DNA of 64,000 nt from Myxococcota bacterium (GTDB lineage Bacteria; Myxococcota; Kuafuiibacteriia; Kuafuiibacteriales; Kuafuiibacteriaceae), in contig JAYZDF010000063.1 of NCBI GenBank assembly GCA_036337945.1, forward strand, positions 26,560-90,559, read 5' to 3'. The position numbers and the translations under genes are program-made. Position 1 is the first letter of the stretch. Each line of letters begins with the position of its first letter. The notes under the pieces are model-generated. The model was given only the letters and a program-made list of their open reading frames with translations, ran no database searches and was not told the DNA's origin. Positions 1,588 to 19,229 of this stretch are shown piece after piece.

Positions 1588-1933
1588 GGTTGCGACCGGA
1601 AAGCAAACGCAAGCTGGTGGTTCAAAATCCGACGACCCTGGTCGTCGAGCGGGTTACAACCGGACCCTAAGTCAGCAAGATATCTCTCGGCTAGCCGCCG
1701 AACTTGAGGAGCGAGGGCGCCGCGGTGTCAATCGCTATATCAACCCAAAAAACCGCAGTAAGAAAGAGGGCAGCGCATTTGCGATAGCCAATGAGGGCAC
1801 TCAAAGTTTCGAGGTTTACGCGCAAGAAACGAAGCCGTTGTCCCGAGAAGAAGCGGTGGCCCAGCATGACGAGCTTTGGCGATATAATCGTTCAATGCGC
1901 GATCTTGTCGGTGTCAAAGTATTTGGCCACTAA
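1472..1933 (+). CDS. doubtful hypothetical ORF (low-complexity, basic) that fills the gap between two minus-strand genes
   Basis: 153-aa ORF with no recognisable motifs. It overlaps the 5' end of the 298..1587 ORF if that ORF uses its longest start. Confidence 0.2.
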   Translation: MSRIGQNLQGLNLLAAAKRLVASVSSDSSSQINPHQQNKVATGKQTQAGGSKSDDPGRRAGYNRTLSQQDISRLAAELEERGRRGVNRYINPKNRSKKEGSAFAIANEGTQSFEVYAQETKPLSREEAVAQHDELWRYNRSMRDLVGVKVFGH

Positions 1934-2710
1934 CCGACCATTGATAAACGCCAGTACCACGTACGCGATAAAGAAAGCTGTGATACCGGAAGTATCGTGA
2001 TAGTTCTGCACGCCGAGTAAGTCGTTCGCTTCATATGACTGTGCCGCGAAACAAAGAGCGCTAATCCGGCCGATGTTGGTAATGGCCGACAAAACTAAGC
2101 TTGCTGCGATGAGCCACGCGATGATTTTCGAGTGCGTACGCTTGAGACTGCCAACAAAGACCGCTAGAGCGACGAAGCGAACCGCTAGGCGCGCACCGCT
2201 ACATTCTGCTGTAATGTAGATCCGGTGGGGGTCACACCAAATTTGGTTATCTGTTCGAATAGCTAAACTCGTATCAAAAATCTGAGTGAACCATGAGGTC
2301 GCTGCTGCCGTAGATATCTGTAAGGATTCTCCAAAATGTAAATCAAGCAAATAGCTCGTTGGAGCGATGAAGAAAAGTAACAATATTCGTCCTGTTGCCA
2401 ACGCAGGGAAGTAGCGATGAAACAGTAGTAAAGTGGCCGGTGCGATAGCATAGCTTGCAATCCAGATTGCATCTAGCACTATGGAAAAAACAGAGATGAT
2501 TGCGAGCAACCAAGGAAGTTGTGAAATAAACGGAATATGAATGGGACCTGGCTCGGCGTATTTGCGTCCTAGCCATATTGCCCAAGCGGTCATGATAGGC
2601 GCGCAGATAATGATTTCTGCGTATCCACCAATTAATGCGTCAAAAAAAACTTCATACACCCCGTAAAGACCGATTAATATACTCGCGATGCATGCAATGA
2701 CGTTAGGCAT
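1892..2710 (-). CDS. exosortase/archaeosortase-family integral membrane transpeptidase (Xrt-like)
   Basis: Polytopic membrane protein. It has the family's conserved motifs: active-site AECSGARLAVRF (Cys-Ser-Gly then Arg), ITNIGRISAL (N-x-x-R-I) and NYHDTSG (His-x-x-G) in successive TM regions. A 9-nt gap downstream of lnt implies co-transcription. Confidence 0.6.
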   Translation of the reverse strand: MPNVIACIASILIGLYGVYEVFFDALIGGYAEIIICAPIMTAWAIWLGRKYAEPGPIHIPFISQLPWLLAIISVFSIVLDAIWIASYAIAPATLLLFHRYFPALATGRILLLFFIAPTSYLLDLHFGESLQISTAAATSWFTQIFDTSLAIRTDNQIWCDPHRIYITAECSGARLAVRFVALAVFVGSLKRTHSKIIAWLIAASLVLSAITNIGRISALCFAAQSYEANDLLGVQNYHDTSGITAFFIAYVVLAFINGRLVAKYFDTDKIAH

Positions 2711-2719
2711 AAGTTGTTT

Positions 2720-4102
2720 CTAATCCTGGCGTCGAAAACCGAACAGGAGGACAACGAGAGTGTATCCTAAGGTCAACGGTGCGAATACACCTTCTGTTCT
2801 CGTAAATATTGATTGCTTACTTTTGAGTTTTATTTTTCCAACGAGAATTCCCGGTTTCCATACTGGTAAATGATGTGTGACCTGACCGCTAGAATCGATC
2901 AGTAGACTTGGCCCCACTTGTGATGAGTGAATTGCTGGTCGCCGCCGCTCAATGGCGCGAAGTACTGTTTTCCGTGCATGCAGCTCGGCAATATTCGTAT
3001 GACCAAAAGCGCCTGGGTCCGTAAAGACTGCGATTGCTTTCGCCTCCTTGGCATGATCAAAAAGGCGCGGAAAAACGCTTTCCCAACAAATAACGGGGGC
3101 GATAGGGGCCTTACTTGGGCCGAGCACGGTTCCCTTCGTTCCCGCACCCAGTCCCGCCTCGATCACGGGTACGTTTTTTCGTTTGTCGTAAATTTGTGCA
3201 GTTTCGAAACCTGGCTCTATATACCAAACAGAATTAAAGTTGATTCCGTCATTGCGATACCTGGGTAGCCCAGCGAGCAGGGCAGGGCGAGTTGTAGAGC
3301 TTAGTGTCTTTCGTAGTTTCTCTTCTTTAGTTGGGTCATGAGGAAGCGCGGTTTCTGGCCAAACTATGAGTTCAACATCCGAAGGTACCTGACTCAAGCT
3401 ATCTGTGTAGGCGTTCTTTAGCACTTGTGAAAACTCGAAGTCTTTTGCTGCGAATTCATAAAACCAATAAGGAATCGCTGCCTGCACGAGTGCAACGTTT
3501 AGCCTTTGGTCGTCGGTTCGTTGTTCTTCTGTCTGTAAATGGTAAAGGCTATAAAGTGAGCTAAGTAGAAGCGCACAGAAAGCTGGTATAGCCGGCTTGA
3601 CCGAGAGTTGGTTTCGGACAGCATATAATGAGGCCCCCAGCCATGCGACGACAAATCCCACAAGATATGTACCACCAAGGTCAGCAATTTGAATGAACCA
3701 GAGTTGGTAAGCAAATCCGTCGCCAAGAGGGGCTGGATTCCAAGCGAGAAGTGTTCGGATATATTCAATTCCGCACCAAAGGGAAGCAACGGTAATTGGT
3801 GTGCCCCAACGCCCACGAAACAATAGTGGCAAGAGGACGACAAAAGCCATTCGGAAGAAAAGGTGCATCAGCCAGGCAACGCCGAATACGTCCCAGCCGT
3901 TTATGATGAAAGACCAAAACGCAAGGCCATCGAAACTGCCAAATAGGAATGCTGGAATGATTGCGCTGCGCGATGTCTTCGTTCTTGTGCATTCGCAGAT
4001 GATTGCGATTCCTAACACAGCAAGCCACGGTGCTTGATCATGAGAAAAAGACATGAGGAGTCCAGCGAGTGCACTCCAAAGCAAGCTCATATCCTTATTC
4101 AT
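2720..4102 (-). CDS. lnt: apolipoprotein N-acyltransferase
   Basis: N-terminal multi-TM domain plus C-terminal CN-hydrolase domain. Catalytic triad context is present: LIVWPETALP (Glu), YDKRKNVP (Lys), PVICWESVFP (Cys), followed by a C-terminal TM helix. Confidence 0.8.
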   Translation of the reverse strand: MNKDMSLLWSALAGLLMSFSHDQAPWLAVLGIAIICECTRTKTSRSAIIPAFLFGSFDGLAFWSFIINGWDVFGVAWLMHLFFRMAFVVLLPLLFRGRWGTPITVASLWCGIEYIRTLLAWNPAPLGDGFAYQLWFIQIADLGGTYLVGFVVAWLGASLYAVRNQLSVKPAIPAFCALLLSSLYSLYHLQTEEQRTDDQRLNVALVQAAIPYWFYEFAAKDFEFSQVLKNAYTDSLSQVPSDVELIVWPETALPHDPTKEEKLRKTLSSTTRPALLAGLPRYRNDGINFNSVWYIEPGFETAQIYDKRKNVPVIEAGLGAGTKGTVLGPSKAPIAPVICWESVFPRLFDHAKEAKAIAVFTDPGAFGHTNIAELHARKTVLRAIERRRPAIHSSQVGPSLLIDSSGQVTHHLPVWKPGILVGKIKLKSKQSIFTRTEGVFAPLTLGYTLVVLLFGFRRQD

Positions 4103-4524: not shown

Positions 4525-7242
4525 TTATCGCACGATCATGAGAATGTCATCATCATCAATCATATCGCCATCATAGTCGGAGTTGTCTTCCCAAACCATG
4601 ATGAGCTGCGTACCATCCACGGCCATGCTTGGCTCAATGGAAATTCCCTGATTGACAGAGTTCATACCGATGTCACTGATTGATGCGTACGGTGAGAACA
4701 TAGAGCCATTCCAAGTTCTCATATAAATATCGAGGTCGGTTCCTGCGCCGTTGATATCACCCGCATCCTCCCAACTTGCGTGGACGTTTCCAAGAGAATC
4801 AATGGCGACATCAGCATTGGTGCTCCTTCCGTCATTGATGTCGTCGCTCAAAAGGATCAGCGAGCCTCGGCCAGCTGGGGTTTGAGGGACAAAGAAGTTG
4901 GCCATGAAGACATCGATGTCAGTACCGTTATTAATTACGTTACCAGAACCGTGCCAGGTAATGTAGAGAAGCCCTCGTGAATCAGCTGGGTCAGCGGCAA
5001 TTCTCGGACGATAGACATTATCGAAACCGTTTTCTTCAGAGATAAGAACGATAGGTCCCCATGTGCAGCCACCTGCCATGTTGGGTGTAGAGCCGCGGTA
5101 ATAAATATCACGGTTCATATCGGTATCCGACATATCGATTTGCCCGTCATCTTGCCAGACGACATGCGGGCAGTTGTCTGGTGTAACCGCGATTCTCGGA
5201 CGGACAGAAACGCCATCTAAACCAGGAAGTGCATCACTGATTAGAGTTGGCTGGTTGAACCCAGCAGAACCACCGCTGGCGTAATAGATATCATAGTCTG
5301 TATCTCCGTCACCGTCGAGGTCACCATTATCTTGCCAGACCACGTGAGCGATGCCTCGGCCGTCGACTGCGACATCGGGATAAATGGAACGATAATCTTG
5401 TTCGTCAGGGCCTGAACCTGCGCCCATAGATGATTGAGATACCAGTAAAGCATTCGTGCCGAGAGACTGCCCATCGTGGTTTCGGTAGTAGATATCTGAC
5501 TCCACGTCGGTGTCTTGATCCAGTGCACCATCATCCTGCCAAACGATATGAAGCCCACCGTTTGACGCTGGTGATACGCTGACATTTTCGGAGTTACCGT
5601 CAAGAACGGGGTTCACAAAATTTGAAACTGTTTCGATGACTGACATCGCAGAACCTGTTCCGTAGAGACGAAGATAGATATCGCGGTCTGTGCCTTCTTC
5701 CGCTCGCTCTACGTTGTCACGCCAAACAACCCCGATTGCGCCATTCGTCGTGACGGCTACTGCAGGACGGTTACTACTTGCTCGGCTAGGATCACTTCCC
5801 CACTCCATTGGGGGAGGATCGTCAGAAACGATACGCGCGAGGTTTGCGACCTCAACGATCATCGTCACTGGGGTCGAGCTGTTCCCCGCGATATCAATCG
5901 CGGTGATGGTGAGTACATGACTTCCATCAGCAACCTGAGTTGTGTCCCAGGCGACAGAGAATGTGGAAGTGTCGGCAAGCGGGATACTTGTCAACGCTTG
6001 ACCATCGACGGCGACGTCAATCGCAGCCACGCCATTCATATTCATATCGGTTGTATTGTCGGTCGCTTCTCCTTCAATGAGAGCAAGGCCGGTCAGTGTG
6101 TCTCCTGCCATGGGCGACAAAATTGTGAGCGCCGGCATCGTGGTGTCTAGCGTAACTGTTGCAACGATGGGATTGCCGGAGGTTCTTCCGCAGAAATCGC
6201 GGGCGTCAATCTGAATAAAGTTCTGGCCTGCGCTGAGAGTGTAAGAAAACATAAAAGTTGTTTCCGCATTCTCCATGACGACTTCATCGTCGTTGACGAG
6301 AATCGCAGAGTTCGCCTCTTTTGTACCGCTGAGCATCAGGTCTGGATTCGACGTGTATGAACCCGGAAGCATAGCTGCTGGAATTTCTGGTTGCGATGGC
6401 GCTGTAGAATCATATTCAACTTCAACCGTGTGTGGAAGACTGATGTTTGTTCCGATTTGTCCAACAAACTCGAGAGTATTTTTTCCTTCATTGAGAGCTA
6501 CAGTGTGTGTCCACGTTGTTTCGTCACCGGCTTCGATTATGAGCGTGTCATTGAGGAGAACAGCTACTCCGGGTGCTCGTTTTCCGGTGATGACTTGAGA
6601 GTCGTCGCAGGTGGGTGACATTGGGTCATCGACGCTCAAGCCGATACCGCTGTCGTCTTGAAAGATATCGAGCTCGACAACTTCGCTTGCACGACATGAA
6701 TCACGTGCCTCGATACGAACTGTATTTGGTCCTGGCATGAGCATGACCTGAGCCGTCCACATTGTGGACTCATCAGGTGGTACAGCAACCATCCCGTCGA
6801 TTGATATTCCAGCACCTGCTTCTTTTTCACCTGAGATGGTGAACATTCTTTCCATAACAACCGCAGGAATCATTCCCGTGACCGTTGGTTTGGCGGGTTG
6901 TGTCAGATCTAGAGTCGTGTTCTTCCGAATGGAGTCACTTTCTTGACCCGTTGCACTTTTAGCAACGATCGTCAGCGTGTTTGTTCCTTCCATCATTTCG
7001 ACCGAAGCATTCCAGGCTGCCTTTTCGTCGAGGGGAACGACTTCCACTCCGTTGATCCAGATGGCAGTAGAACTCTGCTTGGTACCCGATATCGGTGCCG
7101 GTGAAGCGCACACTGTTTCAGCGAGGTCGGCGGTTGGTTTTTCTGGTTTGTCTGTGACGCTAGAGTCCGTTGTTTCTTCGCACGCGAAGCACAATGCGGC
7201 TGCTAAGATCGAGTAAAGTCGAAGGGAATTCGTATGAATCAT
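4525..7242 (-). CDS. secreted (lipo)protein with N-terminal Ig-like/Big-type domains and a C-terminal 7-bladed beta-propeller built from W-x-D...D-x-D-x-DIYYR repeats
   Basis: Signal peptide with Cys (AALCFAC). Seven repeats of about 45-50 aa, for example VVWRDN..GTDRDIYLR, IVWQDDG..DVESDIYYR, VVWQDNG..DTDYDIYYA, VVWQDDG..DMNRDIYYR, ASWEDAG..GTDLDIYMR. Confidence 0.7.
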   Translation of the reverse strand: MIHTNSLRLYSILAAALCFACEETTDSSVTDKPEKPTADLAETVCASPAPISGTKQSSTAIWINGVEVVPLDEKAAWNASVEMMEGTNTLTIVAKSATGQESDSIRKNTTLDLTQPAKPTVTGMIPAVVMERMFTISGEKEAGAGISIDGMVAVPPDESTMWTAQVMLMPGPNTVRIEARDSCRASEVVELDIFQDDSGIGLSVDDPMSPTCDDSQVITGKRAPGVAVLLNDTLIIEAGDETTWTHTVALNEGKNTLEFVGQIGTNISLPHTVEVEYDSTAPSQPEIPAAMLPGSYTSNPDLMLSGTKEANSAILVNDDEVVMENAETTFMFSYTLSAGQNFIQIDARDFCGRTSGNPIVATVTLDTTMPALTILSPMAGDTLTGLALIEGEATDNTTDMNMNGVAAIDVAVDGQALTSIPLADTSTFSVAWDTTQVADGSHVLTITAIDIAGNSSTPVTMIVEVANLARIVSDDPPPMEWGSDPSRASSNRPAVAVTTNGAIGVVWRDNVERAEEGTDRDIYLRLYGTGSAMSVIETVSNFVNPVLDGNSENVSVSPASNGGLHIVWQDDGALDQDTDVESDIYYRNHDGQSLGTNALLVSQSSMGAGSGPDEQDYRSIYPDVAVDGRGIAHVVWQDNGDLDGDGDTDYDIYYASGGSAGFNQPTLISDALPGLDGVSVRPRIAVTPDNCPHVVWQDDGQIDMSDTDMNRDIYYRGSTPNMAGGCTWGPIVLISEENGFDNVYRPRIAADPADSRGLLYITWHGSGNVINNGTDIDVFMANFFVPQTPAGRGSLILLSDDINDGRSTNADVAIDSLGNVHASWEDAGDINGAGTDLDIYMRTWNGSMFSPYASISDIGMNSVNQGISIEPSMAVDGTQLIMVWEDNSDYDGDMIDDDDILMIVR

Positions 7243-7302: not shown

Positions 7303-9042
7303 TTAGAGTTTTAGGGTACCGTAGGACAAATACATCATGGTTAAATTGATGGATAAGTGGCACAAAAATGGGGGTAGGAAGCTGCGTGACTTGTAGTACA
7401 TTAGATACAAAGGTATTCCAGCGCCTACGGTGATCATTCCAATTGATTGCCAAGCTTGCAGGCTCGTGGTGAGACCGACCGAGAGCTGTTCATAGCTCGG
7501 TGATAAATCTACCAGGGCACCCTCCGCAACGGGCGCTATTTGAGAAAAGTCGACCGCTTCAAGAGGGTTTGCAGCAAATGAGTAGTACGTCATATGATAG
7601 AGGCCAAAAAGTAAGCCTCCGAAGACGCTGGGTAGCCAATGGCCTGGCAGTCCTCGCGCCAGATTTCTCGCTAAAAACCCTCGGAAGAAGACCTCTTCAG
7701 CTGCAACGTGGAAAATTGTAAGACCAATGACCACTTCAAGCGCTGATTTTACCGCTTGAGCGGGAGACAAAAAGCCTACGCCGATGCCAAACCCAATCGC
7801 AGGAACCAACCATATTGGGTTACACATAAAATCCGCTTTGTTGAACTTTTGGTCTTTCAAGAAAAACAAGGAGAGAACAACGCCAAAGATGATGAGTAGA
7901 CCTCGTCGAAGGTAGAAGAAATTGTCGCCAGCATCGTAGAAGTATTCGTTGACTCCCATTCTCGACAGTACAGCCATCGCGTAAAGGGCCACAAAAATCA
8001 CGCCAAAACTGAAAATACTTCCGAGCAAACGGCTGAGTTTCGCTTCGGCGATTACATTGTCTCGTTTACCTTTTTTGGTAACTTTGAACGATGCTTTCGA
8101 ATTGGCTTCTGATTTCGATTTTTGGCGGGATTTGAATTCTGAGCCCAACCTATGTGAATCTGAGCTCGCGCTTTTCGTTATCTTCCCTGAGCTTATGTCT
8201 ACGGCGCGTTGCAGTTCGTTCGCGATGTCTCGTCGTCCGGGTTCAATCTCGAGCGCTGACTTGTAGAATTTGATGGCGGCTTTCGCACGACCTACTTCAA
8301 CGGTTGATCGACCGAGATAAACGAGAGTAGAGACACAATATGGAGATTTTTCATGAATCTCTCGTAACTTTCCAAGGAAACCTAGTTTGTCTTGATCGTT
8401 CTTCGCGAGTTTGAATTGAGAGTACGTAAAGGAAGAATGATATTCGGACGTATTTGGGTGTGCTTCTGCAAGCTTTCGAAATATTTCAAGTGCTTCACCC
8501 GCTCGACCTTCCTCAAGATGTCTAAGTCCCAAATCGAATTGAGAACGCTCTCGGAGGTATATAGCGACTTCGTCACCGGGCTCGTCGGTGTTTGCTGGGC
8601 TTACTGCCGCTTCTGCTTGTTGCTCAAGCGCTTGTATCTCCTGACTCATTGAAGCACTTGCCAGTGGATGATAGCTTTTGGAACGTTCGGACGAAGTGTT
8701 GTCGAATAAGAAGTCTTCTACGGTTTTTGGTCTTTCTTGTGGTGGTTCGGGTGTTGGCTCTTCTGTCTGTGCAGGCGCAGTGACATTGGGCGCAGGCGCG
8801 ACGCTGCTCCGACTTTGAATCTCTTGAAACGCTACTGCAAATTCCCGAACACTCAGAATGGGGACATACTGAGTGAAAGGTGCAACAGCAACGTGCGAGT
8901 TTGTAGCTATTTTACCAGCCCGAATCGAGGCGGATATATCCGCCGCGGGAGACGGTCCATATTCGTTCCCGTTTGCAATTCGGAGGCGATACAGCGGCTC
9001 CGTCATCGCGGATACTCTGTCACGCATTGCGCCTGTCAGCAA
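7303..9042 (-). CDS. multidomain membrane protein: N-terminal DUF4339-like domain, TPR repeats, C-terminal CPBP (CAAX protease/Abi) family intramembrane metalloprotease
   Basis: C-terminal polytopic region carries CPBP motifs EEVFFRGF (EExxxR), FGLLFGLYH (FxxxH) and CHLSINL (HxxxN). The middle has TPR-like helical repeats. The N-terminus GNEYGPSPAADISASIRAGKI...VAPFTQYVP is DUF4339-like. The track start is TTG; an ATG lies 15 nt downstream. Confidence 0.7.
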   Translation of the reverse strand: MLTGAMRDRVSAMTEPLYRLRIANGNEYGPSPAADISASIRAGKIATNSHVAVAPFTQYVPILSVREFAVAFQEIQSRSSVAPAPNVTAPAQTEEPTPEPPQERPKTVEDFLFDNTSSERSKSYHPLASASMSQEIQALEQQAEAAVSPANTDEPGDEVAIYLRERSQFDLGLRHLEEGRAGEALEIFRKLAEAHPNTSEYHSSFTYSQFKLAKNDQDKLGFLGKLREIHEKSPYCVSTLVYLGRSTVEVGRAKAAIKFYKSALEIEPGRRDIANELQRAVDISSGKITKSASSDSHRLGSEFKSRQKSKSEANSKASFKVTKKGKRDNVIAEAKLSRLLGSIFSFGVIFVALYAMAVLSRMGVNEYFYDAGDNFFYLRRGLLIIFGVVLSLFFLKDQKFNKADFMCNPIWLVPAIGFGIGVGFLSPAQAVKSALEVVIGLTIFHVAAEEVFFRGFLARNLARGLPGHWLPSVFGGLLFGLYHMTYYSFAANPLEAVDFSQIAPVAEGALVDLSPSYEQLSVGLTTSLQAWQSIGMITVGAGIPLYLMYYKSRSFLPPFLCHLSINLTMMYLSYGTLKL

Positions 9043-9231
9043 ATATGAGGAAGAAATTTGTCTCGACTTCGTTCATCTTTATCGAAAAATGCGACGAATA
9101 AATAGTTTGATGATTATTCTCGTGAATGAATAGTTAGGCTCCAAAGCCGTGGGAAGCTTCAGTGGGTGTGTGAATCACGATTTCTAGGGAGTGGGTCGGT
9201 ATGATTGCGAGGGTAGGTTGAAACAGGGTAT

Positions 9232-9444
9232 CTATTGCTTGTTACGTTTGATGATTCGTCGGCCCAATTCAGTACCAGCCACGACGGCGCACATTGCAAG
9301 AAAGCCGGGTTCGGGTGCCGATGCTCCCCCGCCTGCGCCTGCTCCTTGACCACCACCCCCGCCGCCAGCGAGTGCAGTCAGCGATGTGAGCATAATGGGC
9401 AGAATAACCATTGATCGTATGTATAAACTTTTGAACGTATTCAT
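9232..9444 (-). CDS. mini PEP-CTERM-like protein: signal peptide, then Gly-rich low-complexity linker, then PEP motif, TM helix and basic tail
   Basis: MNTFKSLYIRSMVILPIMLTSLTALA | GGGGGGQGAGAGGGASA | PEP GFLAMCAVVAGTELG RRIIKRNKQ. The track ORF starts 8 codons upstream at a TTG; the ATG (MNTF) with a preceding GGGGA is preferred. It lies 8-10 nt downstream of the pilin stop. Confidence 0.5.
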   Translation of the reverse strand: MNTFKSLYIRSMVILPIMLTSLTALAGGGGGGQGAGAGGGASAPEPGFLAMCAVVAGTELGRRIIKRNKQ

Positions 9445-9454
9445 CGTGTTCCCC

Positions 9455-10009
9455 TTAGAATCTACCAAACGTGAGATTAACTAAGCCGCCCCAAGTATTC
9501 ACCGGGGTTGCTCCTGAGAATGAACCAGCTGGTTCAATGTTATTAGGGTCTGTCCGCCACGCAAACATGAAGACGGCGGGTGCGCCGTTTACGTCGAGGT
9601 CACTTGTTGCCTCGCATCGAACGGCTTCGTTCAAGAACGTGCAGCCGTAATGATAGTAAACTTGCCCCGCGGGCTCGAACCCGATGTCCGTAAATGTACC
9701 GCTTCCCGTTTGTGATGCATTTTGCCCGCTCGTCGGAGAGGCGAAGCGAGGCCAAACTTTCTTCATTCCAGTGATTGGTATCCCTGGCTCGATGCGAGTG
9801 TTGCAGTACGTATCAAAGCTCGCTTTGAAAGCCACTTGGCTCGTTCGAATGCCGCCCAAATTGGTTTTGGCCTCGGTAGTGCGCGCTTTTAGCGTGTATT
9901 TTAGATACAGTGGGATGGCCACGGATGCGAGGATCCCGATAATTGCTACCGTAATCATCAATTCGATGAGTGTGAATCCGGCGGTTCCTTTCTTCGGTAT
10001 TTTCATCAT
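9455..10009 (-). CDS. type IVa pilin (PilA-like major pilin)
   Basis: Prepilin leader MMKIPKKGTAG followed by FTLIELMITVAIIGILASVAIP (Gly-1, Phe+1, Glu+5). C-terminal Cys pair (YGC...VRC) forms a D-region disulfide loop. Shine-Dalgarno AAGGGG lies about 10 nt upstream of the ATG. Confidence 0.8.
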   Translation of the reverse strand: MMKIPKKGTAGFTLIELMITVAIIGILASVAIPLYLKYTLKARTTEAKTNLGGIRTSQVAFKASFDTYCNTRIEPGIPITGMKKVWPRFASPTSGQNASQTGSGTFTDIGFEPAGQVYYHYGCTFLNEAVRCEATSDLDVNGAPAVFMFAWRTDPNNIEPAGSFSGATPVNTWGGLVNLTFGRF

Positions 10010-10060
10010 TTTACTTTGCCCCTTAACTCTATCCTATAAAACCGCAAACCAGGCCTGATC

Positions 10061-10209: not shown

Positions 10210-11166
10210 CTAGAAAGTGAATGTGTAAGATGCTGTAGGTTGGCCTGCGCTAGCCATTGGGGTTGTTATTGCGGGTACTTGACTGGAGCCCCAGCCGGTA
10301 AGTTGAAACAAAACGCCGACCAGACCGATTCCAACTGCGCTTCCTAAGGTCACATAACCCGTGAGTTGTCTGGATTGTGCGCTGAGCAGAAGTTCTTCCC
10401 GTTGCATGAATTCTGTTTGGGGTGTTGCGTTGCGAGCTTGAAGGTCTAACCCGTACATGGCGAAAGATGCAGCGCTTCCCAGAGCAAGGGCTCCAGCGAG
10501 CCCCCAAAAGGTGTACGCAATGTAATTCGGCCCATCGACCATTGGTACGTTTGACTGAAGCGTTACAGCGGGATTTTGTTGGATCGGAGGGGCGCCTCCA
10601 AACCCAGAAGCTGAATTTTGATTAGGAACCGGTGGAGGCAATGAAGAACCGGCCGACACGCGATTACTTTTCGGACGCGCTTTCGCTCTGAGAGGGCCCC
10701 CGTTTTGATATGCGGGCAACGCTTCGACTTTTGCGCCAACCTTTTGCATCGATTCTGTGATTGTCTTTTCTATGAATGACAGCCCAACGGCTGTTCGTGC
10801 ACGCACTCTTTCGACCGGATTTGATGTTGCAATATCTAATAGGGTGACTTGCGTAAGAACCTTGTTCTTTCTGCGAGCGACAATGGTATGAATCGCGTGA
10901 GAAGCTTCTGTAGACTGAGAAGCCGTTGAAATACACGACATCTTGTTTTTGCATTGTGCGAGCTTAAGCAGAACAAACCGGTCCACCTTCAACTCTTTAA
11001 TAGAGCTCTTCTTTAACTGCGCGGAGATACGTTCCAATATCAGGTCACGAGCAGGCTCAAGACCTTCACCGAGGATCGGAGGTACAACAACAATTTGAGC
11101 TTTCGCGTTGTTCGAAAAAAACAACGAAAGACATGTAACTAAAATAACGAGCCAACGTATTGGCAT
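10210..11166 (-). CDS. secreted hypothetical protein with two C-terminal glycine-zipper hydrophobic helices and an aromatic C-terminus (YTFTF)
   Basis: Signal peptide LSLFFSNNAKAQ. Gly-zipper segments GLAGALALGSAAS and GSAVGIGLVGVLF. No recognisable catalytic motif. Confidence 0.5.
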   Translation of the reverse strand: MPIRWLVILVTCLSLFFSNNAKAQIVVVPPILGEGLEPARDLILERISAQLKKSSIKELKVDRFVLLKLAQCKNKMSCISTASQSTEASHAIHTIVARRKNKVLTQVTLLDIATSNPVERVRARTAVGLSFIEKTITESMQKVGAKVEALPAYQNGGPLRAKARPKSNRVSAGSSLPPPVPNQNSASGFGGAPPIQQNPAVTLQSNVPMVDGPNYIAYTFWGLAGALALGSAASFAMYGLDLQARNATPQTEFMQREELLLSAQSRQLTGYVTLGSAVGIGLVGVLFQLTGWGSSQVPAITTPMASAGQPTASYTFTF

Positions 11167-11330
11167 GGCCGAATAGTTTCACGGGTTTGGGCTTATGCTC
11201 AAGACCCGATGCCCTAACAATTGGAATCCGGCGAAGAATAATTCACATCAACTGCGACGGATGGCCTGTAAGCTTCAATATTAGTGGTTTACACCAGTGA
11301 CCTTCGTGAGTTCTCGCTCGCTACTCGAAG

Positions 11331-14300
11331 TTAGGGCTTGAGTTCAAGCAAATAGGCCGCGCCGCAAAAATTTTGGTCACGGGCGGCGTCGAGCGCTCCG
11401 ACCCCCAAATAAGTAGCGCCAGAAATTTGAGCACTGGATAGGGTGTGGCCCGGTCGTCCGCCCGGGTAATTTGTTTGTCCGATAAAACTGGCGACTGGAA
11501 ATGGATTAAGGCCGACGCCATAAATGAACTCATACATCTGAATATCGCCCGCCAAAGACGTTCCCCCGTAATCACCGTAGGGCACACCAACAGCAAGTCC
11601 GACTCGGCCTTGCCCATCGAAATTCGGAATAAATGTCACCCCATTGCCGAAGTTGCCTGACCCTGTCGAACCCGGCAGAGAGAGAACCAGCTGATTGCTT
11701 GGGTCGCTGAAACCATAAAAGGTAGCAGTGGACGCATTTTCAATTGGTTCTGGCGTCAAAGTCTGAAGGTACGAACCCAAAATAATCCATACTGCGCCAA
11801 CAACATTGCCGTTCAGTCTGTACTCGTTTCCGCCGACTGCCAGATCAGGAAGTCCGTCAGAGTCGATATCGAGACCACCGCTGAGACTTGTACCCGCTCT
11901 TGAGAATCGCGACCGTGACTCGAGCGTCAAGAGCTGAGGAGTCAGATAGTCACAGTTGATTCCGGCTCCGAAGACAATCCGTATCGTTCCTTGATTCGTG
12001 CTTCCGTTATCCTCCTCACGGCTGCCAACGACAAATTCATCGCATCCATCGCGATTAAGGTCCCCGAGTTTTCCTAGTGAATGCCCGATTCGACTATTTG
12101 GGCTGATGCCGTACATCGTTGGTTGAACATCACAAATGATTTGAGTCCGTCCATTATTGCTCGGTGCGCGTCCATGAAGGATGGTAAAGCCACCAGAATT
12201 ATTTATACCGGGTGCATCCCAATTAACGCCTGAAACAATAACATCATCAAAGCCGTCGCCGTTCACGTCTACGTCGCCGACGACAGCGTACATTTCAGAG
12301 CTACGGTGAGGTCCGTAATAAATGTAAGCCGGTTGTGACGATATATTCCCATTGGAGTCACCGCGAAATATAAATACCGCGCCTGAGTTATTCTTGCTGG
12401 GCCCGCAAGTTGTTCCGATGACATCATAGGTACTGTTGTTAAAAGACGAAGGTTGATCATCGTAGCGAGCGACGACCGCAAAGTCATTGGTCCCGTCGTT
12501 ATCAAAGTCTCCGACGCGGCTAACGCTGAAACCGAAATGGTCACCGCCCGAATGTCGTCTAAATCGGTCGAGTTCTACATCTGGTTGTGTACCAAAGCCG
12601 TTTGCTGTTCCGAAATAAAGGGCGGCACCGCCGGCGTTGATGCCTACCGAACGAATATCTCTGGCGTGAGCGCCGACCAAAAAGTCAGTAATGTTGTCAC
12701 CATTCACATCGCCAACAAAATCTACTGATATGCCGAATTGATCACCCCCTGCGGAGCCGGGGAGCCCGAGAAGTTCTAACGGTTTGCTTTCGTCTCCAGG
12801 TACGAAAAACGGTGCACCTTCGTTAATGCCGTAGACATCAGAGTATGCAGAAAGTGCAACCAGGTCATTACGCCCGTCGCGGTCTAAATCTCCAACGACG
12901 TCAAAGAACATACCAAAGCGATTTTCGGAAGTAGGCCCAACGATGACTCGCATGGGCGTTGTTGTCGCTGTATCCGGTAATATTCCATCTTCGCCTTCGA
13001 AAATGAATATTGTCCCGGCGTTGTTGCGGCCACCAGGAATTTCGTCGCTATGGTTGCCGACAATTAGGTCGTTTCTCGTGTCACCATCGTAATCTGACAC
13101 GCGCACATACCATCCAGCTTCGTCATTATTATTCGCACCGAACCAGGACAGAGTAGCTGTTTCAACGGCAGATAGATTGAGCATTGGTGTGTCAGGCAAG
13201 TCGAGTTCTTGATAAATCCTGATAGCGCCTCGATTTGTTCCACCTGCGGCGGCATTTTCAGCCCGGAACTGCGTAACGACGAGTTCGTCTGCGAGGTCTC
13301 CGTCGAGGTCTCCAGCCGCCATGAAACGAGCAAACTGGCTCGATCTTTCGGGAGCGACAGTGGCTGCATACCCGCGAACTGGAAATGGCGTCAGCCCGCC
13401 AGGTCCGCTACCATCGGCAGCTCGGCCTCGATAAATAAACAACAGTCCATCATCGGTATTGGTGGGGCCAGCGTCATAAACAAAAGTACCCGCAGCAAGG
13501 TCACAAACCGCATCTCCGTTGAAGTCACCGGCGGCTAAAGCGCGCCCAAGTTGGAGGCTTGTCCGACCCGCGAATGTTCCGTCGCCCAGCGGCATATCCC
13601 CCCAAAGTGAAACGTCCGGTGTATCAGAAAATCCATCAGATCCACCCATATGGATATAAACAGCGCCTTGGTCGTTACTTCTTGTTCGTCGTAGGCGATC
13701 TTCGGCTAAAATTGCACCGATCGCGATGTCCATGTATCCATCGGCGTTGAAGTCACAAGCTTCGACAGCGGTTCCTGCGTAGTCAAATGCGTTAGTTCCG
13801 CCGATGGCTCGAGTAGGTTCTGCACTAAAGAAAGAATTCGGTTGTCCTGAAAAAATATAGACACCACCGTTATCGCGAGCGCCAATATCAGCGCGCATGG
13901 CACCGACGATCAGGTCGAGTAAGCCGTCTCCATCCAGGTCGGCAATGGTCATAGAACGCCCAAACTGCGCGCTTCGACCGCCTTCACTGAGGACGCGAAC
14001 CGGTGTTGGATCCAATCCTGTGGCAGTCCCTTGATAAATAAGCACAGCGCCTGAGTCCGTCGCATTATAGTTTGTTTCTGCCCAAGCCACGGCGACATCG
14101 TCAAACCCGTCTTGATTGATGTCTCCGGTTCGAACGACCGCGCCTGAATTAATGTATGAGCCAGAACGAGTTGTAGAACTGGTGAGAGAAGGGACAGCGA
14201 AAGCTGAAATTTGACTCGTTTGAGATGTGTAACGGTCTGTGACAGAAAGCAGTGTGTCACCTTCTGCTAATGCTTTGATTGTACCGTTCGCGTAAGAGAA

Positions 14301-15298: not shown

Positions 15299-16828
15299 TT
15301 GAAACCACTCGTGAAAAAACAGATTTTTCCATCGTTCATCGCTATATCGTTGCTCACGTTTGGTTGTATCGCCGAACCCGTCGAAATGCCTCCAACCGCT
15401 ATGCCCGCCTTAGATGGAGGCATTCGTGTCAGGCCTCCTGTTCAACCAGACCCATTTCCAGTTGACCTTCGCAGCGTTGACTTTGGAGTAAGTGACCAGA
15501 TCATTCCTCTTCTCAGCGGAGGAATTGTCACCCGAACTGGAACAGTTGTCGAATATCGCGCTAATCTCGGACAGTCTCCTGTTGTACTCAATCATGCTTT
15601 TTCAGCGTTGCTTGACGCGGAAACTTTGCCTTGGGGCTCCTTGCTCCTCTGGACTGGTTCGGAGTTTTTTATCTGGGAAGATGACCAAGTAGTCCGTTCT
15701 CCTATATCTGAGAAGATTCCCGTCACGAAAAGTGGCGAATTGCTCATCGCTCCCGGACCGAGTGGAAAGAAAGATGTTTGGATTACCACAGACAGCGCCG
15801 TATTTTTATGGAGAGAGGAACAAGCGATCCAGCTTGACTTTGGTCCTCTTGCTGCAGGGCCGAAGCATCTTCGCTTCGGGGCGCCATGGAACACCTCTGC
15901 TGCGACCTGGTTGGGGACATCAAACGGCGTGGATGCCTTGGTCGAAACCGGCACGGTGACGACGCGCTATCAAAGCTTGGTGGCGTATCCAGTAGACAAC
16001 CTGGTGATTGATTTTGAAGGGACAGTTTGGGTGCTTACATCTGGTCGTTTGTTTAGCCGAGACTGGGACAACAACTGGGTTGAACACCTTGGCTTAGGCA
16101 CGGTTTTGGCGATCGCAGGCCACCGGGACTCCAAGCAACTTTGGCTGATGACAAAAAGGATGGGGCTTTGGTCTCATCGCGGCGGTAATTTTCAGCCCGC
16201 AGAATGGTCAGACAATGGTCTTAGCTTAGATTCGCTCGACCTCGAAAAGTTAGTTTTTAGTGGTTTACGTGAGGGTCAATTGATTGTGGGTGACCACTTG
16301 AATCGTTACGTAGTGACTCCTGGTCGATTTTTAAATCTTGAGGGTCTCGAGGACGGGAGCCTTCTTACGTCAACGGTGAGTTTTGATGTAAGGGTTTCCG
16401 AGCCACAGACCGTGGATGAAATTCAGGTATTTCTGGACGGTCAGCCATTGAGTCCGGCTTCATCACCTTCGAATTTTTCAATAAGCCCTGCGGGACTGGC
16501 AGACGGCTCGCACGAGATAAGTGTAAACGTTAGTTATTTAGACGGAGCCCCTGATTCACGGTTGGTGGTTCGTTTCTCTGTGTATAGTGAAAACCCACCA
16601 ACATGGGTCAACGACATCTTTCCTATTTTTCAAAATGATTGTGAAGTTTGTCATGGGCTAAGGGGAAGTGCCCGTTTGCTAAGTACGCCTGACTTGTGGC
16701 GTAGTGATATAGATATAATTTTGGACGTTGTTCGGAAAGGCACTATGCCTCTCCCACCGAGTCCTCCGCTTTCCGAGGGAGAGATCATTCAGATCGAAGG
16801 ATGGAAAGCGGCGGGTTATTTGGAGTGA
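15299..16828 (+). CDS. lipoprotein with a novel N-terminal ~430-aa region and a C-terminal PSCyt1 (Planctomycete cytochrome C, CxxCH) domain
   Basis: Lipobox LLTFGC. C-terminus IFPIFQNDCEVCHGLRGSARLLS...GTMPLPP...LSEGEIIQIEGWKAAG matches the PSCyt1 pattern. TTG start with AGGA upstream; an alternative GTG lies 12 nt downstream. Confidence 0.65.
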   Translation: MKPLVKKQIFPSFIAISLLTFGCIAEPVEMPPTAMPALDGGIRVRPPVQPDPFPVDLRSVDFGVSDQIIPLLSGGIVTRTGTVVEYRANLGQSPVVLNHAFSALLDAETLPWGSLLLWTGSEFFIWEDDQVVRSPISEKIPVTKSGELLIAPGPSGKKDVWITTDSAVFLWREEQAIQLDFGPLAAGPKHLRFGAPWNTSAATWLGTSNGVDALVETGTVTTRYQSLVAYPVDNLVIDFEGTVWVLTSGRLFSRDWDNNWVEHLGLGTVLAIAGHRDSKQLWLMTKRMGLWSHRGGNFQPAEWSDNGLSLDSLDLEKLVFSGLREGQLIVGDHLNRYVVTPGRFLNLEGLEDGSLLTSTVSFDVRVSEPQTVDEIQVFLDGQPLSPASSPSNFSISPAGLADGSHEISVNVSYLDGAPDSRLVVRFSVYSENPPTWVNDIFPIFQNDCEVCHGLRGSARLLSTPDLWRSDIDIILDVVRKGTMPLPPSPPLSEGEIIQIEGWKAAGYLE

Positions 16829-16833
16829 AAAAA

Positions 16834-18435
16834 ATGAGAATTTTATTCGCCGCTACTTTGTTAGCCACGCTGGTCGGGTCTGCCCAAGCAAGTGTTCCTA
16901 ACGAAGCATTGATGTGCAGGCCTGACGAGCCGCGCATGGACAAATTCGCTTATCTAAGAGCGCTGAGTTTGGATATTCGTGGAGATGTACCGACCTACGA
17001 TGAGTATGCTGAACTTGCAGCGAACCACTCCGATGTCCCCGATGCATGGATAGAGAACTGGTTGAGTAGTGAAGCTTTTGTAGAGCGCGCCGTTCGTGCG
17101 CATCGCTCTTTAGTATGGAACAACCTCGATGCAGTTCGGCTTGGTAACTATCGACAGAACTTCCGCCGGATTCGAGCCAGCGACAATAGTTTCGTATACT
17201 ACCGAGACCGCCAAGCGGCGGTATACAGACATGTCAATCGCCCTCCTTGTGATGTTGACCGGCCAGTAGAGTATGATTCAGCCGGGCGAATTAGAACCTG
17301 GGCAAAAGACTTCATCCGTAATGGAGAAACATATAGCGCGCAGGTTGAAGGTTACGTCATGGTGTCTCCTTATTGGGCGCCCAACACTTCGATAAAAGTT
17401 TGCGCATTTGACGCTCAAGTTGGGGACGTCTCCGCCTCTGGTTCAGACTGCCGAACGAACGGCGGATTCGGAGATGCCGGTTGCGGTTGTGGTGAAAATC
17501 TAAAATTGTGCCGGTACGGCAGCAATGTTTATTCGGAGCGAGCATCTCTTGAGCGCGATGTCGAACTTCGCATTGCAGACGTCATTCGCAACAATCGTCC
17601 GTACACAGAGATGTTTACAAGTCGTAAAGCGTATGTAAACGGGCCTCTTGTTCACTTCTTGAAACATCATATCGGATTCACGTCGGGTACCAGCTTGGAG
17701 CCGCTTCCGTTTGACGAGGCGAACCTCCCCGATATCCCGTTTACGGACTACAATTACTACGAAATCGATTTACCCGCCGAACATGCCGGAATCTTGACGA
17801 GCCCTAGCTTTCTGCTGCGCTTCCAAACAAACCGAGCGCGTGCGAATCGATTCTTTGACGCGTTTATGTGTTCTCCGCCATCTCCTCCTTCGGGCGGGTT
17901 GCCTGCCCAGGATCCAAACGCACGCATCGAGCCTGACCTGCAGTTGAGAGACGGCTGCAAATATTGCCACGCGCTCCTAGAGCCAGCGGCTGCGCACTGG
18001 GGTCGTTGGACCGAACGTGGTTCTGGCTTTCTTAGTATGGAGCAATTTCCTCCGACTCGCGCAGATTGCGAAGAGTGCGGACGAACTGGACAAGCATGCA
18101 GTCAAGAATGCCGCTTGCACTACGTAACCCAAGCTTTCACACCGGAAGAGGACCAATACATCGGTATGCTCAATGCCTATCAGTGGATGAAACCTTCTCA
18201 CCAAAGAAACGTTGAGTTAGGTCCAAAGTTCCTAGTTCTTACTTCCATCGTTGATGCCCGTTTCCCAGACTGCACCGCGAAGCGAGCTCTGGAGTCCCTA
18301 CTAGGACGCGAGACGAATGCTGCGGAGCAAGAATGGATTAAGGACCTTTCTAAGGATTTCCTAAACTCCGGATACCGATATCGCGATCTGGTGAAAGCCA
18401 TTGTGACCAGTGATATCTACAGGAGGATTCGATAA
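16834..18435 (+). CDS. periplasmic PSCyt2/PSD1 (DUF1549/DUF1553) family protein
   Basis: Own signal peptide MRILFAATLLATLVGSAQA. DUF1549-like motif YLRALSLDIRGDVPTYDEY...AWIENWL. Downstream there is a second CxxCH (DGCKYCHALLEP). The track ORF starts at 16801, upstream of the signal peptide. Confidence 0.65.
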   Translation: MRILFAATLLATLVGSAQASVPNEALMCRPDEPRMDKFAYLRALSLDIRGDVPTYDEYAELAANHSDVPDAWIENWLSSEAFVERAVRAHRSLVWNNLDAVRLGNYRQNFRRIRASDNSFVYYRDRQAAVYRHVNRPPCDVDRPVEYDSAGRIRTWAKDFIRNGETYSAQVEGYVMVSPYWAPNTSIKVCAFDAQVGDVSASGSDCRTNGGFGDAGCGCGENLKLCRYGSNVYSERASLERDVELRIADVIRNNRPYTEMFTSRKAYVNGPLVHFLKHHIGFTSGTSLEPLPFDEANLPDIPFTDYNYYEIDLPAEHAGILTSPSFLLRFQTNRARANRFFDAFMCSPPSPPSGGLPAQDPNARIEPDLQLRDGCKYCHALLEPAAAHWGRWTERGSGFLSMEQFPPTRADCEECGRTGQACSQECRLHYVTQAFTPEEDQYIGMLNAYQWMKPSHQRNVELGPKFLVLTSIVDARFPDCTAKRALESLLGRETNAAEQEWIKDLSKDFLNSGYRYRDLVKAIVTSDIYRRIR

Positions 18436-19217
18436 TGAAGATGCTTCGAATAGCAGCAAGCTCGCTTCTGAGTTTGAGTCTTGTTTCGTTTGGCTGTGAC
18501 AGCGCAAAGCAAGTCTACAACCCGCCCGTAGAGCAAACAGCGCCAACTGTGCTTGAGGTCGATGGTGACCCTTTCCTCGGGAAGAAAGCCATTGAACAGG
18601 GCACACTTGGCGAGACCACCTCGCATCACAATGCGTTTTCGCAAGTTTCACTTATGCCGAAACCACCGGTCGAAGAGGCTCCATATCGAAACCGAAGACG
18701 TATGGACTTGGATCAATTAACTGCTTCTCTCAAAACTGTCAGTGACGGCCTAGAGTGGACCGTAAACGGTCAAAACCAGTTCGACGTGTTGGCATCGACT
18801 TTGGGTAAGCCTGACTTCAATACCATCACGAGCGAAGACTTGGACCCCTCTGCGATGTTTCTGAAGTTTTTGAATGATGCATCACGCGATATTTGTTTCC
18901 AAATGGTGGAGCGTGATCTTCAGCGAACAGTTTCGACTCGTGTGCTATTCAAGCATGCGACACCTGAAATGACGATGGCGAACAATGCAAACGCTATCGA
19001 GATAAATTTGGTTTATTTGCTCAAGCGCTTCCATGGCATGTCCTCGGTTGCGTCTTGTGATGACTGCGACGAAGACACGCCAAATGCTCTTGGTCCCGAA
19101 TTACAACAATGGGTCTGGCTCTACCAGGCAGCTGAGCATGTTTCATCTAGTCCGGTGGATGCATGGCGAACGGTTTGCGTCGCTTTGATCAATCATCCGG
19201 ATTTCTACATGTATTAG
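18435..19217 (+). CDS. hypothetical lipoprotein
   Basis: Lipobox LVSFGC. TAATG stop/start overlap with the upstream gene indicates translational coupling. Confidence 0.55.
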   Translation: MKMLRIAASSLLSLSLVSFGCDSAKQVYNPPVEQTAPTVLEVDGDPFLGKKAIEQGTLGETTSHHNAFSQVSLMPKPPVEEAPYRNRRRMDLDQLTASLKTVSDGLEWTVNGQNQFDVLASTLGKPDFNTITSEDLDPSAMFLKFLNDASRDICFQMVERDLQRTVSTRVLFKHATPEMTMANNANAIEINLVYLLKRFHGMSSVASCDDCDEDTPNALGPELQQWVWLYQAAEHVSSSPVDAWRTVCVALINHPDFYMY

Positions 19218-19229
19218 GAGGCAACTGAG

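Follow-up and report, generated by a model that had tools for sequence, protein, structure and literature searches.

A pilin-linked family of cargo-less mini-proteins with a PEP-CTERM-like tail

Introduction

What might be the role of a protein that consists of almost nothing but the signals for its own export and sorting? The question is raised by a small gene on the minus strand of a 64,000-nucleotide stretch of contig JAYZDF010000063.1 from a Myxococcota bacterium (this whole stretch is referred to here as the window), the translated product of which reads MNTFKSLYIRSMVILPIMLTSLTALA then GGGGGGQGAGAGGGASA then PEP then GFLAMCAVVAGTELG then RRIIKRNKQ. The original prediction, made for this open reading frame (ORF) of 70 residues, described a signal peptide followed by a linker of about 17 Gly and Ala residues, the motif PEP, 15 hydrophobic residues and the terminal RRIIKRNKQ, and in these respects it was exactly right. 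The gene and its product are here called the mini-gene and the mini-protein, and their parts are as follows.

9232..9444, minus strand: mini-protein gene, 70 codons plus stop, with ATG at 9444 and the stop codon at 9232-9234
9367..9444, minus strand: Sec-type signal peptide, residues 1-26, with a basic n-region, a hydrophobic core and an AxA end, as read from the alignment
9316..9366, minus strand: Gly-rich spacer, residues 27-43, 17 residues of Gly/Ala beginning at the predicted cleavage site
9307..9315, minus strand: Pro-Glu-Pro motif, residues 44-46, invariant in all members, with codons that differ
9262..9306, minus strand: hydrophobic segment GFLAMCAVVAGTELG, residues 47-61, 15 residues including Cys52 and Glu59
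9235..9261, minus strand: basic C-terminal end, residues 62-70, RR invariant and the remainder variable and Lys/Arg-rich

The answer reached here comes in two parts of differing firmness. The first is that the mini-protein belongs to an undescribed, lineage-restricted family of mini-proteins with a PEP-CTERM-like tail. The second, which is tentative and to which we would give a probability of roughly 0.4, is that it is a dedicated client, devoid of cargo, of an intramembrane sorting enzyme encoded at the same locus, an exosortase being favoured over a protease of the CPBP family.

Design of the mini-protein and its family

A protein search (5.8 billion) returned four homologs of the mini-protein, the lowest identity being 60%, while context look-ups together with an exhaustive HMMER search added three further lineages (L008, P0007 and P0008); identities among the homologs range from 60 to 100%. 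The family alignment has seven members, six of which form a core, the seventh being the distant P0009. In all seven the AxA site for signal peptidase I is invariant, the n-region and hydrophobic core having diverged, and cleavage of the signal peptide would be expected to follow AxA. The spacer that begins at this point is 16-17 residues long in every member (7/7) and is composed of Gly, Ala, Ser and Thr, with a leading run of 5-11 glycines in the six core members that starts at the predicted cleavage site. Because the length of this Gly run varies while that of the spacer as a whole stays constant, the comparison points to selection on spacer length; if cleavage takes place where predicted, the N-terminus of the mature peptide would be a free oligoglycine.

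The residue ahead of PEP is small in all members, being A or, in P0009, G. Beyond PEP, the hydrophobic segment of the core members follows the consensus xF[LW]x[ML]CA[VI]VAGxE[LV]G, with a length of exactly 15 residues (6/6) and with both Cys52 and Glu59 invariant. An AlphaFold2 (AF2) model based on a five-sequence alignment has a helix at residues 3-26, coil at residues 27-45, within which the spacer is disordered, and a second helix at residues 46-69, the predicted local distance difference test (pLDDT) values of the tail being 76-89. In every member the tail is thus tripartite, with PEP, a hydrophobic stretch and RR with a basic end at the C-terminus, and an N-terminal signal peptide is present on the same protein (as read from the alignment).

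Evidence that the mini-gene is genuine

The start of the mini-gene is taken as the ATG at 9444, which is backed by the N-termini of the homologs, an upstream TTG at 9468 being disfavoured. That the reading frame is a real one is argued most directly by comparing DNA and protein. The tails of the window protein and of L001 share 18 of 20 residues, and 16 of those 18 are encoded by different codons. When five DNA sequences were compared by codon position over the 21 codons that run from the Ala ahead of PEP through RR, distant lineages differed at 11-17 third positions and at 0-2 second positions, and even the close pair formed by the window and L006 showed 8 third-position differences; in the signal-peptide block, 9-15 of 20 residues are changed between distant lineages. 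The L006 locus is 85.6% identical to the window in DNA over 14 kb; the two mini-proteins agree in every residue (100%), their genes differing at 18 third positions over the tail and signal-peptide blocks together. The tail stays constant across related loci of 49% to 68% G+C content, and gene callers have predicted the mini-gene independently in many metagenomes. Since it is conserved in several lineages and carries a coding signature, the mini-gene is real rather than a chance ORF and, as judged from these comparisons, is under strong purifying selection in the Gly run and the tail.

Two other possible sources of the conservation were considered and set aside. ORFs on the opposite strand (9235-9414 and 9191-9349, both plus) cannot be driving it, because it is the third codon positions of the minus-strand frame that take up the substitutions. 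An RNA element is ruled out by the results of two analyses: no Rfam family matched anywhere across the mini-gene locus, and the downstream intergenic RNA folded no better than shuffled sequences (z=0.16).

The distant member P0009

The most distant member of the family, P0009 (73 residues), was found at E=6e-6 in an exhaustive profile search. It keeps AxA, a Gly spacer of 16 residues, PEP and RR, while its hydrophobic segment is 19 residues long and uncharged and has neither Cys nor Glu, and its tail looks like a canonical PEP-CTERM one. Against PF07589 it scores 13 bits as a whole protein and 16 bits when the tail is taken alone, the gathering score being 20.7. Because its tail so nearly reaches the Pfam threshold for PEP-CTERM, P0009 suggests that the mini-protein family derives from tails of the PEP-CTERM type, and cargo-less PEP tails with a Gly spacer may be more widespread than this clade. 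Copies of it are found at three places.

L011, 8890-9111: P0009 copy
L012, 343-564: P0009 copy
L013, 178-399: P0009 copy

Its gene has ComEA-like genes on one side and an HMGL-like gene on the other. The 10 kb of sequence available at the P0009 loci contain no gene for a pilin, a CPBP protein or an exosortase, and the P0009 host has no detectable genes in common with the available related loci.

Linkage to the pilin gene

Immediately upstream of the mini-gene, on the same strand, lies the gene for a major pilin.

9455..10009, minus strand: type IVa major pilin gene, 184 residues, with a prepilin leader bearing the G|FTLIELM cleavage/methylation motif
9445..9454, minus strand: pilin/mini-gene junction of 10 nucleotides, with a Shine-Dalgarno (SD)-like AAGGGG that overlaps the pilin stop codon
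10115..10130, minus strand: sigma-54-like element TGGCGC-N5-CTGCA, about 106 nucleotides upstream of the pilin start, with 2 mismatches

The pilin is recognised by TIGR02532 (31 bits, cut-off 16.3) and by the N_methyl model PF07963 (32.8 bits, cut-off 21.2); its best partial model match is PilA_Myxo, and among solved structures it is closest to the M. xanthus PilA filament 8TJ2 (E=9e-13). The tight linkage that had been noted at the outset amounts to 10 nucleotides, which is operon-grade, and it is a general property of the family: searching relatives for the same small gene beside the pilin gene, as had been proposed, found it there in 5/5 lineages with upstream sequence, with a gap of 10-24 nucleotides and a Myxococcus-like major pilin in each. 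An SD-like motif ahead of the ATG is likewise present at the junction in L001, L008, L009 and L014. No terminator-like site was found between the pilin gene and the mini-gene, nor any intrinsic terminator after the mini-gene.

The sigma-54-like element is no more frequent in the window than expected by chance, and it is retained in L001, L008 and L009 amid intergenic DNA that has otherwise diverged; it may act as the promoter. Given that this element is conserved upstream and that no terminator-like site intervenes, the pilin gene and the mini-gene are probably co-transcribed. A second block (GATTGCGGTTTTAT-like, 10030-10052), some 25-45 nucleotides upstream of the pilin start, is also kept in the same three relatives (L001, L008 and L009). 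In two relatives a gene on the opposite strand, encoding 377 residues in L008 and 396 in the P0007 contig, has been inserted between the mini-gene and the CPBP gene that otherwise follows it, from which it appears that the mini-gene travels with the pilin gene and not with the CPBP gene.

Candidate processing enzymes

Three further genes of the same block bear on the question of processing.

1892..2710, minus strand: exosortase-family protein, 272 residues, candidate processing enzyme
2720..4102, minus strand: Lnt, apolipoprotein N-acyltransferase (TIGR00546, 166.6 bits, cut-off 132.9)
7303..9006, minus strand: TPR plus CPBP (Rce1-like) glutamic intramembrane protease, candidate processing enzyme or partner

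The assignment of the exosortase rests on PF09721 (56.2 bits, cut-off 25.7; E=4.3e-15) and on the TIGR04178 signature (37.3, cut-off 23), and it places an exosortase in the same genome as the mini-gene (1892-2710 of the window). No subtype model reached its cut-off among those for XrtA, D, J, N, S, T, W and X, CrtC and ArtE. Its motifs CSG, NIGR and HDTSG correspond to Cys-x-Gly, Asn-x-x-Arg and His-x-x-x-Gly, which are the exosortase motifs described by Haft et al. 2006 (PMC1569441), and by these motifs the enzyme is catalytically intact. The Lnt and exosortase genes are separated by 9 nucleotides in the window and overlap by 4 nucleotides in L099 (6431-8646), where the exosortase (P0015) is 41% identical and the block CPBP - Big_7 - Lnt - exosortase is retained, the contigs examined for this homolog stopping a little upstream of the CPBP gene; the Lnt-exosortase operon may represent an undescribed exosortase subtype or system.

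The CPBP protease that had been predicted downstream of the mini-gene is well supported: the protein matches PF02517 at E=3.6e-13, has TPR matches in addition, and carries the motifs EEVFFR, FGLYH and HLSIN. Its start is probably the Met at 9006, as indicated by homologs (as in P0005), which gives a protein of 567 residues and a gap of 225 nucleotides to the mini-gene. Its scores against Mrt_core, MrtS, MrtJ and MrtP are 8-14 bits, where cut-offs are 75-250 (for Mrt_core, 14 against 100), and the myxosortase models thus remain far below cut-off on this protein. NCBIfam does include a CPBP family named for PEP-CTERM systems (TIGR03008). The CPBP gene directly follows the mini-gene in the window, L001, L009, L010 and L014, whereas in L008 and, as judged by gene order, in the P0007 contig it comes after the opposite-strand insert; across lineages, mini-gene and CPBP gene are separated by 160-470 nucleotides.

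Interpretation

The reading preferred here, in which the mini-protein is a dedicated client of a sorting enzyme, would run as follows. After export by the Sec pathway, signal peptidase I would leave a type I membrane peptide of 44 residues, with its oligoglycine N-terminus in the periplasm, PEP where the inner membrane meets the periplasm and the basic end in the cytoplasm. A tripartite C-terminal sorting signal has this same topology before its enzyme acts on it. The likeliest enzyme would be the unclassified exosortase, possibly acting together with the adjacent TPR-CPBP protease. A cut at or near PEP would either release the Gly-rich part, about 20 residues long, or pass it on to an acceptor, the conserved helix staying behind in the membrane. 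Since there is no folded cargo, the functional product would be the glycine tether itself, or else the act of processing, in step with the synthesis of pilin.

The exosortase is favoured because PEP is invariant and correctly positioned, because the enzyme is unclassified and because P0009 is so nearly a PEP-CTERM protein. The fact that the exosortase keeps all three motifs while belonging to no known subtype makes a divergent cognate signal plausible, and Haft 2023 (bioRxiv 10.1101/2023.06.07.544157) would lead one to expect conserved in-membrane residues in a signal that is handled by an intramembrane protease. No other tripartite tail was found among the ORFs of the 64-kb window or of 158 kb of related loci, so that a system with a single client would fit; the earlier statement that this is the only PEP C-terminus in the window holds for all of its ORFs, whether tripartite or PEP tails are considered.

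A substantial body of evidence nevertheless weighs against this reading, and cleavage at the C-terminus, on which it depends, is itself a proposal. At E<=10 neither TIGR02595 (NCBIfam), the hidden Markov model (HMM) with which the original prediction proposed to check its claim, nor PF07589 (Pfam) matches the window protein or the core members, and at the same limit these PEP-CTERM models also fail on the isolated tails of the window protein and four other core members. Every other curated model of a C-terminal signal fails on the core family too, including on the tail alone, and for MYXO-, JDVT-, Synerg- and CGP-CTERM no sorting-signal model of NCBIfam matched any tail at E<=10. (The possibility that a bias filter acting on the Gly run had masked an HMM match was rejected when the tails were rescanned alone, the core family still being unmatched.) PEP-CTERM is recognised as a suffix on unrelated proteins, and in the data examined the present tail is not found as one. 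An exhaustive profile search of 1.84 billion representatives found it on mini-proteins only and on nothing larger, returning 4 proteins, all of 58-73 residues, with the limit that a 25-residue tail at lower identity would miss the threshold of E=0.001; the idea that the protein is cargo-less is to that extent upheld for the whole family. The hydrophobic segment, moreover, is only 15 residues long and contains a Glu.

Gene order offers further difficulties. The exosortase gene, which was rightly recognised but had been placed 5 kb away, lies five genes and 6.5 kb from the mini-gene in a different transcription unit. Synteny within the clade extends as far as HisRS, a ParA/Mrp-like gene and ArgRS (from the comparison with L099), and because such housekeeping genes are equally syntenic the linkage of the exosortase is weak evidence of a functional relation. 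The linkage that is tight and conserved is to pilin, for which the proposed scheme has no explanation other than co-expression.

The peptide is laid out like the tripartite signals LPXTG, PEP-CTERM, GlyGly-CTERM, MYXO-CTERM and JDVT-CTERM, but because the HMM tests failed and the suffix pattern is lacking it cannot be assigned to any of these five: by sequence, it has the PEP-CTERM layout without being a detectable member of the PEP-CTERM domain family. The description of it as canonical PEP-CTERM consequently stands as regards the tripartite layout and falls as regards the rest, given the unmatched HMMs, the 15-residue segment and the invariant Cys and Glu.

Alternative explanations

The main rival, which seems somewhat unlikely, is that the mini-protein is an uncleaved single-pass micro-protein that works with pilin or with the type IV pilus machinery. 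Cys52, Gly57, Thr58 and Glu59 would then make helix contacts, for instance with the N-terminal membrane helix of pilin, in which Glu5 is placed about as deep, close to the cytoplasmic face, and PEP and RR would be ordinary juxtamembrane features. Such a role would account naturally for the pilin gene being the only partner with operon-grade linkage (in 5/5 lineages, with an SD-like motif and no terminator between) and for the mini-gene staying with it where another gene has been inserted before the CPBP gene. It leaves an invariant PEP and a fixed-length oligoglycine spacer without obvious role, as well as the presence of two intramembrane enzymes of sorting type in the same gene block. The membrane segment has polar residues and is far better conserved than the signal peptide, as a partner helix should be, but 15 residues make a short stretch for a stable membrane span. 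That the tail is never seen on cargo proteins and escapes all sorting-signal models also speaks for this rival, whereas P0009, which has no pilin neighbour and lacks both Cys and Glu, still keeps AxA, the Gly spacer, PEP and RR.

It is distinctly less probable that the mini-protein is a client of the adjacent TPR-CPBP protease, with Cys52 being lipidated and the protein then cut distal to it, as in JDVT-CTERM/MrtJ or MYXO-CTERM/myxosortase. Single-client sorting enzymes as a rule adjoin their clients, and in every lineage with downstream sequence at most one gene separates the CPBP gene from the mini-gene; this adjacency is, however, broken by the opposite-strand gene in L008 and the P0007 contig, and the 160-470 nucleotides between the two genes make it probable that they are not co-translated. 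The motifs of the CPBP protein are intact, and experimentally MrtX cleaves MYXO-CTERM in a Cys-dependent manner (PMC11980579). The faint matches to Mrt_core, MrtS, MrtJ and MrtP lie far below cut-off, and no model of a Cys-type signal matches the tail. As to the Cys itself, it is invariant in 6/6 core members, with other in-membrane residues conserved, but it is absent from P0009, and it sits inside the hydrophobic stretch, 9 residues before RR, unlike the situation in TraA, where the motif lies ahead of a full helix.

A more speculative reading, which must be regarded as a long shot, is that the mature peptide is both donor and acceptor in a transpeptidation of sortase type, the oligoglycine serving as nucleophile and the PEP tail as exosortase signal. 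According to a work in the reference list of PMC1569441, sortase links the C-terminal signal, once cut, to the free amine with which an oligoglycine begins, NH2-Gly3 serving in vitro. The exosortase would by analogy polymerise or cyclise the peptide, or the anchored peptide would be a primer or acceptor for other substrates; in a variant of the same idea, the Lnt-type N-acyltransferase would acylate the glycine amine to give a lipid-anchored tether. The identity of the exosortase acceptor, and indeed whether exosortases are transpeptidases at all, is open in the literature (bioRxiv 10.1101/2023.06.07.544157).

A secreted, Gly-rich, bacteriocin-like peptide, for which the CPBP (Abi-type) protein would be the immunity factor, is very improbable. 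The peptide is indeed small and Gly-rich with a cationic end, and CPBP/Abi genes, proposed to confer self-immunity, often lie downstream of bacteriocin genes (reviewed in bioRxiv 10.1101/2023.06.07.544157). Its leader, however, is a Sec signal peptide and not of the double-glycine type, there is no dedicated exporter nearby, its sequence is nearly frozen across loci of 49-68% G+C, unlike those of fast-evolving toxins, and its gene is fixed in a pilin operon, while the helix and RR would hold the peptide in the membrane of the producer. Processing by a rhombosortase, as for GlyGly-CTERM proteins, was also considered and judged unlikely, TIGR03501 being unmatched and no rhomboid gene being seen near the locus.

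Finally, the possibility that the mini-gene is a spurious ORF at the 3' end of the pilin transcript, which the original prediction named as the outcome to be feared should the Gly run and tail prove not to be conserved, is refuted by the codon-position pattern: the mini-gene is short, partly of low complexity and without a Pfam or NCBIfam match, but its frame, start, length and amino acids are kept across five lineages divergent in DNA, substitutions pile up at third positions, the SD-like motif is kept, the gene calls are independent, and the Gly run and tail are conserved in homologs under purifying selection.

Wider gene order and distribution

As far as the contigs reach, the order 318-residue membrane protein, pilin, mini-gene, TPR-CPBP gene and Big_7 protein is conserved in the window, L001, L008, L009/L010, L014 and the P0007 contig. 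The 318-residue protein (10210-11166, minus strand) is encoded upstream of the pilin gene and has homologs of 304-345 residues in L008, L009, L010 and the P0007 contig; it consists of a signal peptide, an N-terminal domain of about 130 residues, a Pro/Ser-rich linker and two C-terminal hydrophobic helices, with the end YTFTF, and it matches nothing in Pfam or NCBIfam. The Big_7/Big_13 protein (4525-7242, minus strand, 905 residues) has an N-terminal LCFAC lipobox-like signal and, in its C-terminal half, repeated 'DIYY/VWQD' units with a weak match to the NCBIfam entry 'PDIAV motif-containing lipoprotein'; all relatives keep its gene in this place, with the CPBP gene on one side and the Lnt gene on the other. 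Genes on the opposite strand (377-423 residues), inserted between the mini-gene and the CPBP gene, occur at four places.

L008, 2348-3481, minus strand: opposite-strand insert
P0007 contig, 10441-11631, minus strand: opposite-strand insert
L099, 63-1334, minus strand: opposite-strand insert
L017, 829-1155, minus strand: opposite-strand insert

The product of the L008 insert is rich in Asp, Pro, Gly and Ala and has a signal peptide; the inserted gene is absent from the window.

Elsewhere in the window (16801-20603 and 22974-24413, both plus strand) a gene of the PSCyt2/PSD2 (DUF1549/DUF1585) type, one for an unannotated 260-residue protein and a DUF1501 gene stand in a row, forming a trio of Planctomycetes style, with a VKOR-thioredoxin/DsbA fusion nearby.

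With regard to distribution, the mini-protein family has no relative in 185,579 species genomes, and a metagenome scan recovered the lineage of the window together with one relative and nothing else. The family is known from about six lineages, all of them marine-type metagenome assemblies and one a TARA record. Relatives of the gene block span 49% to 68% G+C (L001, L008, L014 and L099 compared with the window), and the same 185,579 species genomes contain no close relative of the host (ClpA being at most 60% identical), which looks like a member of a deep, poorly sampled and probably marine lineage. The best ClpA matches, at 55-60% identity, are scattered over many phyla and give no guide to its placement, for which the Myxococcus-like pilin and the DUF1501/PSCyt2/PSD2 genes offer only hints.

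Implications

Only a few uncultured marine lineages carry the family, and the function proposed for it is an inferred one, but there are several reasons why it merits attention. A natural client of 44 residues would be an unusually simple substrate on which to study the attachment chemistry of exosortases, offering three features that can be mutated (the oligoglycine, PEP and the Cys/Glu helix) and two candidate enzymes nearby. Its fixed coupling to pilin raises the possibility that pilus biogenesis and C-terminal sorting are connected in a way not recognised before. Were it instead an uncleaved partner of pilin, it would be a new accessory micro-protein of the type IV pilus; and if the mature peptide did prove to be both donor and acceptor, it would be the first defined acceptor of an exosortase, made in step with the subunits of the pilus.

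Comparison with known systems

The nearest parallel in layout is the PEP-CTERM/exosortase system (EpsH, XrtA; PMC1569441), with which the present locus shares a signal peptide, a tail of PEP, hydrophobic segment and basic end, and an exosortase in the gene block. It differs in that the mini-protein has no cargo domain, leaves the HMMs unmatched and has a segment of only 15 residues with invariant Cys and Glu, and in that its tail occurs once per locus, in a pilin operon without a surrounding exopolysaccharide (EPS) locus, while its exosortase fits no Xrt subtype. Experimental work has tied exosortases to surface, EPS and motility phenotypes, no client like the mini-protein being described in it.

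Two systems based on CPBP proteases show likenesses of another kind. In JDVT-CTERM/MrtJ (bioRxiv 10.1101/2023.06.07.544157) there is likewise a single client beside a CPBP protease, with an invariant Cys and with conserved, partly polar residues within the membrane (DP in JDVT, TE/AE in the mini-protein). The Cys of JDVT-CTERM, however, belongs to the leading motif, whereas that of the mini-protein lies within the hydrophobic stretch; JDVT-CTERM clients have cargo domains, the JDVT-CTERM and MrtJ models find no match at cut-off, and the locus of the mini-protein adds PEP and an exosortase. MYXO-CTERM/MrtX (PMC11980579) has in common with it a tripartite tail with Cys and a CPBP protease with EExxxR and HxxxN, and the pilin of the present locus is nearest to Myxococcus PilA; but MYXO-CTERM is carried by dozens of proteins per genome, its Cys stands well before the helix, the helix is uncharged, and TIGR03901 and the Mrt models are unmatched at the mini-protein locus. 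For such a protease the removal of a Cys-containing tail has been shown experimentally (PMC11980579), again with no client like the mini-protein described.

GlyGly-CTERM/rhombosortase (PMC3237569) resembles the mini-protein in having a Gly-rich region before a helix and basic cluster, and in its single-client arrangement; the criteria of its curators, by contrast, specify a signature motif without Cys (PMC3237569), and TIGR03501 is unmatched. With LPXTG/sortase A the resemblance is an analogy of working only, the mini-protein being one that would carry a tripartite signal together with a free Gly5-11 N-terminus, but its locus lacks both a sortase and an LPXTG motif, and the host is of diderm type. 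Set beside all of these, the mini-protein is distinct in having no cargo, an oligoglycine spacer of fixed length, a short and near-invariant Cys/Glu segment, and a fixed place behind the major pilin.

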